64,000 nt of DNA from Trueperaceae bacterium (GTDB lineage Bacteria > Deinococcota > Deinococci > Deinococcales > Trueperaceae). Position 1 is the first letter of the stretch, and every line of letters starts with the position of its first letter. The notes under the pieces are model-generated. The model worked only from the letters and a program-made list of their open reading frames with translations. It did not search any database and was not told the DNA's origin. The stretch is from NCBI GenBank assembly GCA_965215565.1, contig CBDCDZ010000004.1, forward strand, positions 1,984,001 through 2,048,000, written 5' to 3'. This document shows positions 34,987-36,518 of this stretch, piece by piece. A program made the translations under genes and the position numbers.

Positions 34987-35200
34987 ATACGGATTCCGAT
35001 TGATTACTGCATAAACTCCTTCGGAGTTGATTCCGTAATCATCGGAATCCGTAGCTCTTTATTCTCGCAAAGGAGCCTTCAGCCGGGGCTGATAAGCTTA
35101 ACGACGACGCGCGTAGCTTCAAAGATGATACCTCTGGCTGAAGACTCTTCCGCTCGGGTTAAACACGAAATAAAGTTTCGTGTTTAACCGGAAACGGTAT
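34987..35200 (+). mobile_element. Family-2 palindromic element with nested insert
   Basis: ATACGGATTCCGATTGATTACTGCATAAACTCCTTCG...CCGGAAACGGTAT; homologous to 28402-28538 plus about 78 extra bp. Confidence 0.8.
35071..35149. mobile_element. Nested miniature element (family 3) with ~16-bp imperfect TIRs
   Basis: AGGAGCCTTCAGCCGG ... CTGGCTGAAGACTCTT; absent from the sister copy at 28402. Confidence 0.6.
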
Positions 35201-35685
35201 TACACGCCGGGTAACTCAACCGCACTCGGGAAGTCCGGGAAGAGGTTGGAGCTGTCTATTTCGCCGCGGTGGTTGAAGAAGGTGACGCGCCCTTCCAAGC
35301 TGCACGTCCACACCTCCTTCGCACCTTTCGCAAGGTAGAGATGGCGCTTTAGCGCCATCTCCGCGTCTGAGTTGGAGGGCGAAACGATTTCAACACAGAG
35401 TTCCGGTGCAATACCGAAGGGCGTTTCCAGGCCATTTTGAGAAAAGAAGTCGGCTGAAATCCACACAACATCAGCCACCTTGACTCCCTTCGAGGTTCTC
35501 AAGGAACATTCTGAAATGACAACGCCTCCACTTTTCAACCGAGTAAGAAGAAATGCAATCGCTGTTTGTATAGCACCGTGCAGGTTAGAAGCAGGGCTCA
35601 TAACGACGTTGCCCCATTCGTTAAGCTCAATCTTGAAGGGAAGATTTTGCAGCGTCTCATCTTTGATAACCTCTGACCATTCCAT
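35200..35685 (-). CDS. Uma2 family (PD-(D/E)XK) endonuclease-like protein
   Basis: MSPASNLHG, KVADVVW, APELCVEIVSPSN, K..LYLAKGAKEVW. Confidence 0.88.
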   Translation of the reverse strand: MEWSEVIKDETLQNLPFKIELNEWGNVVMSPASNLHGAIQTAIAFLLTRLKSGGVVISECSLRTSKGVKVADVVWISADFFSQNGLETPFGIAPELCVEIVSPSNSDAEMALKRHLYLAKGAKEVWTCSLEGRVTFFNHRGEIDSSNLFPDFPSAVELPGV

Positions 35686-35761: not shown

Positions 35762-35767
35762 TATACT
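35762..35767 (+). promoter_or_regulatory. Putative -10 box of the candidate small RNA
   Basis: TATACT in an AT-rich context about 12 nt upstream of the anti-16S motif. Confidence 0.45.
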
Positions 35768-35773
35768 TTTCTT

Positions 35774-35944
35774 ACCACAGAAAGGAGGTGGTCCGAATTT
35801 TACAAAATGACATGACCAGTGGAGGTACCCGCCGAGGGTAACTGACCATGTCCCGGACTGAGGGACTTTCGCTAAAGAGTTGTTTATCCTCAGTACCAGG
35901 CGGGCACCGACAGCCTCGAGATCGTCTCGAGGCTGTTTCCTTTT
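35774..35944 (+). ncRNA. Candidate structured small RNA (or micro-peptide mRNA) of unknown family
   Basis: -10 box, AGAAAGGAGGTGGTCC, nested stems 35824-35833/35899-35908 and 35857-35863/35888-35894, intrinsic terminator; both neighbouring genes are on the minus strand. Confidence 0.55.
35910..35944 (+). terminator. Intrinsic terminator
   Basis: ACAGCCTCGAGA-TCG-TCTCGAGGCTGT followed by TTCCTTTT. Confidence 0.7.
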
Positions 35945-36062
35945 GCCCTTGTCGTTTGGCGGTGTACCACGTTTTGCGTGTGGCGTTGCGCTAATATTTA
36001 TGAGAGAGGTAGCTCGGTCCCCGCATGGACGCAAAACGGGACACCTCAGACCTCTTGTACTT

Positions 36063-36518
36063 TTAGAGCGTTAAATTGTACGTATAGAAAGACGTGTCTT
36101 TCTTCCACCCGAGCGCTTCATAAAGTTTTTGCGCTTGCTCATTCGTGACCTCCGTCGCAAGCATCAGCCGCGCCGCGCCCGTTTCTTTTCCGAAACTCGC
36201 CGCACGCTCCATGAGCACTTTTGCTACCCCTTTACGCCTTGCCTGCTCCGTTACGAAGAGGTCATTCAAAATCCAAATCTGCGCCATCAAGACGGACGAA
36301 AACGAGGGGTAGAGCTGCGCAAAGCCGGCGGGTTTACCGTCTGAAAACGCGATGAAAACGACCGAATCCCCTTGCGAGAGCCGCTCGTACAAAAACGCCT
36401 TTGCCCCCGACGTGTCGGAGGCTTGGCGGTAGAACTGCCTGTAACCGTCGAAAAGTTGCGTGAGTTCATCTAAGTGCTGGAGTCCAGCTTGGACGACCTT
36501 TAAGTCTGAATCAGCCAC
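36063..36518 (-). CDS. GNAT N-acetyltransferase
   Basis: LFDGYRQFY, GFAQLYPSFSS, WILNDLFV..ARRKGVA, AQKLYEALGW. Confidence 0.9.
   Translation of the reverse strand: MADSDLKVVQAGLQHLDELTQLFDGYRQFYRQASDTSGAKAFLYERLSQGDSVVFIAFSDGKPAGFAQLYPSFSSVLMAQIWILNDLFVTEQARRKGVAKVLMERAASFGKETGAARLMLATEVTNEQAQKLYEALGWKKDTSFYTYNLTL

Follow-up and report, generated by a model that had tools for sequence, protein, structure and literature searches.

A predicted free-standing RNA of Trueperaceae with an extended Shine-Dalgarno sequence and a conserved AUU-started micro-ORF is a divergent relative of Ms_IGR-5

The window, by which we mean the whole stretch of 64,000 nt analysed here, carries between two minus-strand genes what is, judged from its sequence, a free-standing RNA gene on the plus strand (35774–35944), with a predicted transcript of about 171 nt. 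The flanking genes are a Uma2-family gene (35200–35685) and a GNAT acetyltransferase gene (36063–36518), the latter followed by bioY. We took the ends of the predicted RNA from conservation, from a −10 box and from a terminator, and a match to the Rfam family Ms_IGR-5, discussed below, spans nearly the same stretch. Conservation sets in exactly at 35774 in 29 of 29 aligned loci of the window's family. Upstream lies the −10-like hexamer TATACT (35762–35767, plus strand; TANNNT), a predicted promoter element without a recognisable −35 box, and in 27 of 29 loci of the family a TANNNT hexamer precedes the point where conservation begins by exactly 6 nt, in 85 of 119 loci outside the family by 6–7 nt. 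At the other end, a 13-pair stem (35909–35937) followed by a pyrimidine tail forms an intrinsic terminator (35909–35944, plus strand), and the members of the window's family close with a GC-rich hairpin of variable sequence and a pyrimidine tail. A consensus scanner called no promoter at the locus, the minus strand here being likewise empty, and ARAGORN found nothing at the window. The TATACT box, the 16-mer complementary to 16S rRNA, both stem pairs, the terminator and the ATT codon at 35797 that are given in the preliminary description all check out in the sequence.

The neighbours differ among the loci of the family, with bioY present at several of them and unrelated genes elsewhere, which fits an independent gene rather than a leader. 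A role as cis-acting leader of a neighbouring gene could draw on the divergent 4Fe-4S gene that is the neighbour in 14 of the 28 upstream ORFs scanned (longest ORF only), but the RNA is single-copy and ends in a terminator of its own, and its sequence persists where the neighbours change. The same terminator and single-copy conservation disfavour the decayed 5′ end of an ordinary gene, which had been named as an outcome that would overturn the proposal of an RNA gene. In a locus of the same genus (L003) a sulfotransferase gene takes the place directly upstream that the Uma2-family gene (35200–35685) holds in the window, and the latter appears to be a recent insertion. Directly past the terminator (35955–36046) lies a dispersed repeat of about 90 bp with imperfect inverted ends and a variable middle, REP- or MITE-like, with 6 full copies and many half matches genome-wide; as it is missing at the corresponding place in L003, we consider it unrelated to the RNA.

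The 5′ part of the RNA holds an extended Shine-Dalgarno (SD) sequence of 16 nt (35779–35794, plus strand), complementary to the 3′ tail of 16S rRNA. The genome's own 16S gene (contig C4, minus strand, near 3583124–3583139) carries the tail that had been assumed earlier, and the pairing proposed on that assumption holds against it: 16 of 16 positions are paired, 15 as Watson-Crick pairs and one as G-U, in a duplex of −27.8 kcal/mol, where the tail is the sequence of the 16S rRNA gene and its mature 3′ end is predicted. A search of the 4.49 Mb genome for 16-mers that pair over their full length gives only three, namely the rDNA antisense, 35779–35794, and one site with only 11 Watson-Crick pairs; leaving the rDNA aside, no site in the genome matches the organism's 16S tail better than 35779–35794. 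The likeness to rDNA stops at the 16-mer, so the locus is not an rRNA fragment.

When the region was compared by BLASTN with 36 further genomes from the window's family, 29 gave one strong match each and two weaker matches were seen; 24 genomes of four other families gave nothing below an E value of 0.01. With R1, a covariance model of the 5′ domain built from 113 sequences including members of the window's family, 98 of the 112 genomes from this family, the Trueperaceae, gave a single match each. A sample of 141 genomes of the phylum gave four further genuine copies, all in small genera of a second family and all with a CTG start and 13 codons; elsewhere in this sample R1, which scored the best 35 candidates per genome so that a genome without a match counts as "not found" and not as "absent", gave one weak match among 73 genomes of the second family's large genus; the matches in a third family were all weak, and a fourth family had no match. 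Weak matches in family f4 and the large genus g36 were rejected: 8 of the 13 were inspected, and these 8 are without the architecture. A variant of the window's type is also present in records titled Trueperaceae or Deinococcales (L052, L088).

R1 furthermore matched 106 of 141 Actinomycetes genomes, with two matches in one of them, and 9 of 101 genomes from the phylum to which an acidobacterial record belongs. We combined the first SD and a second GAGGT into a search pattern, which is estimated to match 5200 stretches in the genome collection; among the matches listed, at least 120 from 2 of 64 parts, most are from Actinomycetota, and others are from Acidobacteriota, SAR86, Syntrophobacter, Binatia, Eisenbacteria and Sumerlaeota. 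The loci are kin, and all counts given here and below therefore overstate independence. One unpublished genome (G035, locus L017) contributes one row to the family counts, to both alignments and to R1, and two others, G276 (locus L443) and G285, are counted among the 106 matches in Actinomycetes, L443 being also among the 42 loci checked for an ORF below; no claim depends on the unpublished genomes alone. In viral contigs, 120 loci with a 14-mer match were almost all coding sequence or ordinary ribosome binding sites; three of the 120 had a second GAGGT in range, and by eye none had the architecture of the window copy, so that within the scanned set there is no sign of a phage-borne form. In one contig of the viral collection (L305) we noted the start of an RNA that resembles rreB and has a frame of 14 codons opening with GTG; the contig may be host DNA next to a prophage.

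The ATT codon at 35797 lies 2 nt past the end of the complement at 35794 and opens a micro-ORF of 14 codons, in plain translation ILQNDMTSGGTRRG, which ends with TAA at 35839–35841 (35797–35841, plus strand). The preliminary description saw no start codon at normal spacing and listed the ATT frame as a mere option, but we find this frame conserved in 28 of 28 non-duplicate loci of the window's family, with the start codons ATT (19), ATA (6) and ATC (3) placed 6–8 nt after GGAGGU (7 nt in 26 of 28), a length of 12–15 codons, and the stop codons TAA (23), TAG (4) and TGA (1). In-frame stops are absent from all 28 loci, compared with 21 and 17 of 28 loci that have stops in the two other frames; the further frame that had been listed, MTSGGTRRG, fares poorly, its ATG being present in only 7 of 28. 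Among loci found by the pattern the corresponding figures are 0 of 105 loci against 40 and 83 of 105. When 111 non-duplicate loci found by the pattern were subjected to the ORF test, 109 passed, mostly with ATG, TTG or GTG and one of them probably by chance, and two failed; among model matches examined later the ORF is present in 37 of 42, the remaining five, all acidobacterial, not being parsed. Two SAR86 records (L075, L078) have an ATT start, a spacing of 7 nt and 14 codons, as in the window's family, with the stop only 11 nt past the second GAGGT. In a copy from the acidobacterial phylum (L454) a loop that is 21 nt longer gives an ORF of 19 codons, and the frame is again kept.

The stop codon lies 17 nt after the second GAGGT in the window's family, 15 nt after it in most Actinomycetota, which is another frame, and 14 nt after it in a further clade. 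The reading frame relative to the RNA thus differs between clades, the codons in the loop vary freely, and the codons that are constant are those under the helices P1 and P3 and the second SD, all described below. Because the positions of start and stop are kept while the peptide differs, selection appears to act on start and stop at set places and not on the peptide; the conserved frame is carried by the RNA, and the peptide is probably unimportant. The opposite possibility is that the RNA serves to make a micropeptide specific to each clade, whose level an excessively strong SD combined with a weak start codon would hold low. The peptides are short, hydrophilic and variable in their N-terminal half, with C-terminal residues that are constant within clades, as would suit a functional product, and the peptides RreB and RreR of the analogous rre RNAs, which have been reported only from Alphaproteobacteria, are conserved within their respective clades (available text of PMC5711450). 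Against this, the constant codons coincide with P1, P3 and the second SD, homologous RNAs read identical bases in different frames, RreB and RreR are described as unstructured, and a putative overproduction of RreB had no effect on growth (PMC5711450, in the part available), all of which leads us to regard a functional peptide as improbable.

Type I toxins typically have short, folded mRNAs whose translation is suppressed, and this would speak for the type-I-toxin-like mRNA that had been proposed for the locus on an earlier look. A hydrophobic, membrane-active peptide is, however, not what the frame encodes, since the peptide is short, hydrophilic and variable and is read in different frames between clades, and no antisense partner was seen, the promoter scan showing nothing on the minus strand here. 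Together with a leader of a neighbouring gene, a decayed gene end and an rRNA fragment, we hold a toxin mRNA to be very improbable.

The region folds better than shuffled sequences (z −3.8, with 1 of 200 shuffles as good, terminator included). In the fold that we favor, helix P1 pairs 35775–35778 with 35819–35822 and leaves the SD core as a one-sided bulge, P2 pairs 35790–35793, the 3′ part of the 16S complement, with the loop end at 35814–35817, and P3 pairs 35824–35833 with 35899–35908, enclosing the stop codon and a variable inner domain (all on the plus strand). The inner stem arms listed earlier, 35857–35863 and 35888–35894 (plus strand), are present. Three of the four pairs of P1 change on both sides in 50–54 of 113 sequences, with 91% of cells paired, and P2 is paired in 84% in the actinobacterial register, with a compensatory change from G-C to A-U in seven sequences. 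Taken over nine pairs, both-side changes occupy 164 cells, compared with 61.5 in shuffled alignments and 0–53 in slid controls. The pair at columns 19–61 is paired in 45% of cells, because the P2 register is shifted by one in the window's family.

P3 was assessed by swapping partners: in 37 of 46 distinct 5′ strands, pairing with the strand's own partner is stronger than the mean over swapped partners (−18.0 versus −15.4 kcal/mol), though the own partner ranks first in only 5 of 46; the paired changes are clade-specific. This swap test was used in place of a looser best-match test, which did not discriminate (100 of 110, and 75 of 110 for upstream sequence). RNAalifold, applied to a MAFFT alignment of 29 sequences, proposed local hairpins of invariant bases in which 1 of 16 pairs is compensatory, and was uninformative because the family is too conserved and its 3′ half poorly aligned. 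The earlier proposal of a stand-alone structured RNA is supported.

In the window RNA the P1–P2–P3 fold is computed at −68.1 kcal/mol, compared with a predicted minimum of −70.7 kcal/mol, and over 30 loci the median cost of forcing P1 is 4.9 kcal/mol. Two alternative pairings are of interest here. An anti-SD-like stretch directly past the stop codon (35843–35854, plus strand) is complementary to 35783–35794 and gives a predicted alternative fold; the 40 nt after the stop pair better than shuffled sequence in 27 of 30 loci of the family (−16.1 versus −11.0 kcal/mol), and outside the family 58 of 107 loci do better than shuffled, which is no signal. Forced in the window RNA, this pairing gives −61.5 kcal/mol, 6.6 kcal/mol worse than the P1–P2–P3 fold. 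In loci outside the family, the 3′ strand of P2 pairs over at least five bases with the region past P3 in 56% of 107 loci, against 30% with swapped and 14% with shuffled tails, the target being, by eye, the loop of the terminal hairpin. Both pairings suggest, as far as such predictions go, an RNA with two states. In actinobacterial loci (L063, L086, L094 and others) the GGAC strand of P2 and a GUCC in the loop of the 3′ hairpin appear to covary, which suggests a long-range pseudoknot; its formation would leave the entire 16S complement free.

A second SD-like hexamer (35821–35826, plus strand) sits at the junction of P1 and P3 and ends 9 nt ahead of the last sense codon. This spacing would be the distance of an SD from the P-site codon with the stop codon in the A site. 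The hexamer is invariant in the 29 loci of the family found by BLAST. As our initial search pattern demanded a second GAGGT, we retested the second SD on loci picked by the first SD alone, a set of 118 loci from which 11 in rDNA, 10 without a canonical start, 3 with a long ORF and 3 duplicates were removed to leave 91. At a threshold of −6 kcal/mol, 14 of 15 loci with the window architecture and 35 of 76 alphaproteobacterial-type loci have an SD-like site 6–18 nt upstream of the stop; codon-shuffled versions have one in 20% and 16%, respectively, and among 2524 long ORFs in the genome 22% do. The tendency to carry a second SD is common to the window group and the alphaproteobacterial-type loci; we regard it as a suggestive enrichment among kin loci and not as a probability, and since the second SD overlaps P1 and P3, structure alone could conserve it.

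A precedent for an RNA of this design is rreB of Bradyrhizobium, which is 165 nt long and has an SD of 17 nt and an ORF of 14 codons that starts with GTG (Hahn et al., RNA Biol 14:1353; PMC5711450). According to the available text of that study, rreB co-sediments with the 30S subunit and is weakly translated, its start codon reduces its half-life from 37 to 10 min, and removal of the start codon stabilises the RNA. Sequence and structure considered together, we favor, at a probability of roughly 55%, the reading that the window RNA is an extended-SD mini-mRNA of the rre-like kind, related to Ms_IGR-5, in which ribosome binding and translation, rather than the peptide, would toggle the RNA's own fold and lifetime. 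This reading draws its support from the conservation of a frame without conservation of a peptide, the covariation of P1, the second SD, the varying neighbours, the precedent of rreB and the transcription of Ms_IGR-5 in actinobacterial hosts.

In such a mechanism, a 30S subunit would dock on the bulged SD and zip up the rest of the duplex with the 16S tail, melting P2. Initiation at AUU would be slow and sensitive to IF3 and to initiation capacity, IF3 normally rejecting AUU starts. The elongating ribosome would then melt P1 and P3, and the second SD would hold the ribosome at the stop codon, where it would cover the anti-SD past the stop and keep the first SD open. The output would be a translation-dependent change in the fold and the lifetime of the RNA, as in rreB, and the RNA could serve as a gauge of the state of initiation and termination. 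Extended SDs are known to accompany and support AUU and AUA starts in Staphylococcus aureus (PMC13009471, in the part available), and post-termination ribosomes are reported to settle at sites preceded by an SD, in the accessible text of a review on reinitiation that is loosely relevant here (PMC5972666). Several results count against this mechanism: the fold supported by covariation lies above the predicted minimum, the anti-SD past the stop is limited to the window's family and is energetically worse than the P1–P2–P3 fold, and the second SD does not reach the threshold in 41 of 76 loci of the alphaproteobacterial type.

An alternative role would be that of a cap or storage RNA for the 30S subunit, which pairs with the whole single-stranded 16S tail, blocks RNase R and parks idle subunits under stress or in stationary phase, with the weak ORF as a route of release. 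The complement does reach the predicted last bases of the tail, and the most 5′ bases of rreB are required for its co-fractionation with ribosomes (PMC5711450, available part). RNase R begins on 16S rRNA's single-stranded 3′ end, and an SD oligonucleotide protects the 30S subunit in vitro (PMC10901742, as far as its text is accessible); the genome encodes an 824-aa protein with an RNB domain. On the other hand, rreB is far rarer than ribosomes, a 20-fold overexpression of it had no effect on growth, and its authors argue against simple sequestration, in the text of PMC5711450 available to us. HPF is reported to protect the 16S 3′ end already (PMC10901742, same part), and the genome encodes a 190-aa protein of the HPF family. 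The strict conservation of start and stop positions also exceeds what a cap would need, and we therefore consider a cap unlikely. The preliminary description had proposed an sRNA of about 170 nt that captures 30S subunits as a decoy or in a hibernation-like manner. A design for pairing with the 16S tail is supported, and the analogous rreB has been shown to bind 30S (PMC5711450, accessible text), but with start and stop kept across phyla and the excess of rreB harmless, we think a role that depends on translation more likely than one purely as a decoy or in hibernation.

The RNA could also act in trans by base pairing, with its purine-rich 5′ end or a processed fragment targeting other RNAs and ribosome passage serving only for processing. 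A stable fragment of about 60 nt, containing the ORF and released from ribosomes, is indeed produced from rreB (PMC5711450, in its available part), and the inner domain of our RNA is variable in length and sequence. However, the only conserved single-stranded sequence that spans phyla is the complement to 16S itself, and a trans-acting role strikes us as quite improbable.

An Rfam scan of the window gave nothing at the gathering threshold. Below it, the stretch 35774–35942 matches Ms_IGR-5 (RF02471) at 28.8 bits against a cut-off of 45, with an E value of 9.1e-5 locally and 1.8e-4 genome-wide, and this match is the only one in the genome. No more than these sub-threshold scores is seen among the relatives of the window copy either, 0 of 21 of them reaching the cut-off, whereas the four actinobacterial loci that match Rfam do so as Ms_IGR-5 above the cut-off (95–179 bits), as does one acidobacterial locus (49.6 bits); two further actinobacterial loci among the 20 scanned had no Rfam match. 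The motif is missing from an RF02471 match in G041 (L035), which appears to be a chance match. Judged by sequence and layout, the window RNA is a divergent, sub-threshold relative of Ms_IGR-5 in the Deinococcota, and the transcript that had been called an orphan thus has thousands of look-alikes. A match to a well-characterised Rfam family had been named as an outcome that would undo the earlier proposal; a relative was found, but it is sub-threshold, and the function of Ms_IGR-5 is itself unexplained.

Ms_IGR-5 was reportedly first described by Li and co-workers in 2013. It corresponds to IGR-5, or ncMSMEG15794c, of Mycobacterium smegmatis and is described as an uncharacterised sRNA, and the accessible descriptions name neither an ORF nor a complement to 16S rRNA (PMC10454040). 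It is transcribed and NAD-capped in M. smegmatis (bioRxiv 10.1101/2021.12.14.472595; PMC10454040) and transcribed in Streptomyces lividans (PMC8079986) and S. avermitilis (PMC8780764), according to the parts of these sources available, so that reports of expression concern actinobacterial members only. Evidence for translation of the actinobacterial ORF is absent from the searched supplements of PMC4633059 (12 of 13 files), where only the neighbouring gene appeared, and of PMC10654065 (one file). In the accessible, largely open-access literature we found no work that links Ms_IGR-5 to the rre genes or names a member in Deinococcota, and the motif searched as text gave no match.

The two groups share the 16S complement at the 5′ end, P1 and P2, an AU-rich loop with the start codon, a second GAGGU, a P3 that closes on YACC, and a terminal hairpin, in corresponding order, and a single model built from both finds both. 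They differ in that Ms_IGR-5 uses AUG, UUG or GUG at a spacing of 9–12 nt, whereas the window's family uses AUU, AUA or AUC at a spacing of 7 nt in another frame. The window's family furthermore has a U-tailed terminator and the anti-SD past the stop, in contrast to the pairing of GGAC with GUCC in the terminal loop of actinobacterial Ms_IGR-5, and occurs in Trueperaceae and Deinococcales, whereas the occurrence of Ms_IGR-5 is in Actinobacteria.

The rre RNAs are alike in other ways. Both rreB and rreR are, like the window RNA, stand-alone RNAs of about 165 nt with a 16–17 nt complement to the 16S 3′ end that is partly sequestered in a helix, a non-AUG start and an ORF of 14–18 codons, with no similarity of the peptide between clades. 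They are defined by at least 16 nt of complementarity upstream of a small ORF, and the window RNA has 16 of 16 positions paired upstream of a 14-codon ORF. In the rre RNAs, however, the complement runs into the GUG start (spacing 5–7 nt in our sample), whereas the AUU of the window RNA starts 2 nt past it, and the available text on rreB does not mention a second SD before the stop (PMC5711450). R1 matched none of four alphaproteobacterial genomes, and the link to rreB is thus one of design rather than of demonstrated homology.

CC2171 (RF01867) begins with an identical 16S complement. It scores only 18.7 bits on the window copy (E value 0.087, cut-off 75), and loci of the CC2171 type have another helix layout and mostly longer ORFs than the window copy. 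Alphaproteobacterial loci with ORFs of 14–27 codons score 36–77 bits on CC2171, among them sampled loci that fit the descriptions of the rre genes, namely a 14-codon GTG frame beside a tRNA gene and an 18-codon GTG frame in Roseobacteraceae; we infer that these are rreB and rreR, respectively. From these scores CC2171 appears to be the Rfam face of the rre-type RNAs, and its transcript has been validated by Northern blot in Methylorubrum (bioRxiv 10.1101/2022.01.24.477521, available part). Six loci (L171, L163, L191, L173, L172 and L166), near 343–550 of the locus or on its reverse strand, combine the 16S complement with an ORF of 14–27 codons, and about half of them have a second SD-like site.

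An RNA that is single-copy in most genomes of the window's family and in most sampled Actinomycetes, has look-alikes in many phyla and has been filed as a non-coding sRNA could, if our reading is correct, turn an orphan Rfam family into a device of translation control that can be tested in the tractable M. smegmatis and Streptomyces, and it connects RNAs of the Ms_IGR-5 type to rreB, the sole case that has been studied experimentally. The AUU, AUA and AUC starts found throughout the family offer a natural test of how far initiation can be driven, by a very long SD, at codons normally rejected by IF3, and the way in which an SD may help to hold terminating ribosomes could be studied in compact form with the second SD at the stop.

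One may speculate further, and we do so tentatively, holding it possible though doubtful, that Ms_IGR-5, CC2171, rreB/rreR and the AUU-started Deinococcota form make up one unrecognised, multi-phylum class of ribosome-handling RNAs. Its members would be single-copy, two-state mini-mRNAs with SDs at start and stop that load, hold and release ribosomes, thereby reporting the fidelity of initiation through IF3 or protecting the 16S tail against RNase R, and they would be the RNA equivalent of the hibernation factors. Compared with the systems already described, the architecture of Ms_IGR-5 and the extended-SD design of the rre type are known, and what is new is a Deinococcota form with a family-wide non-canonical start.
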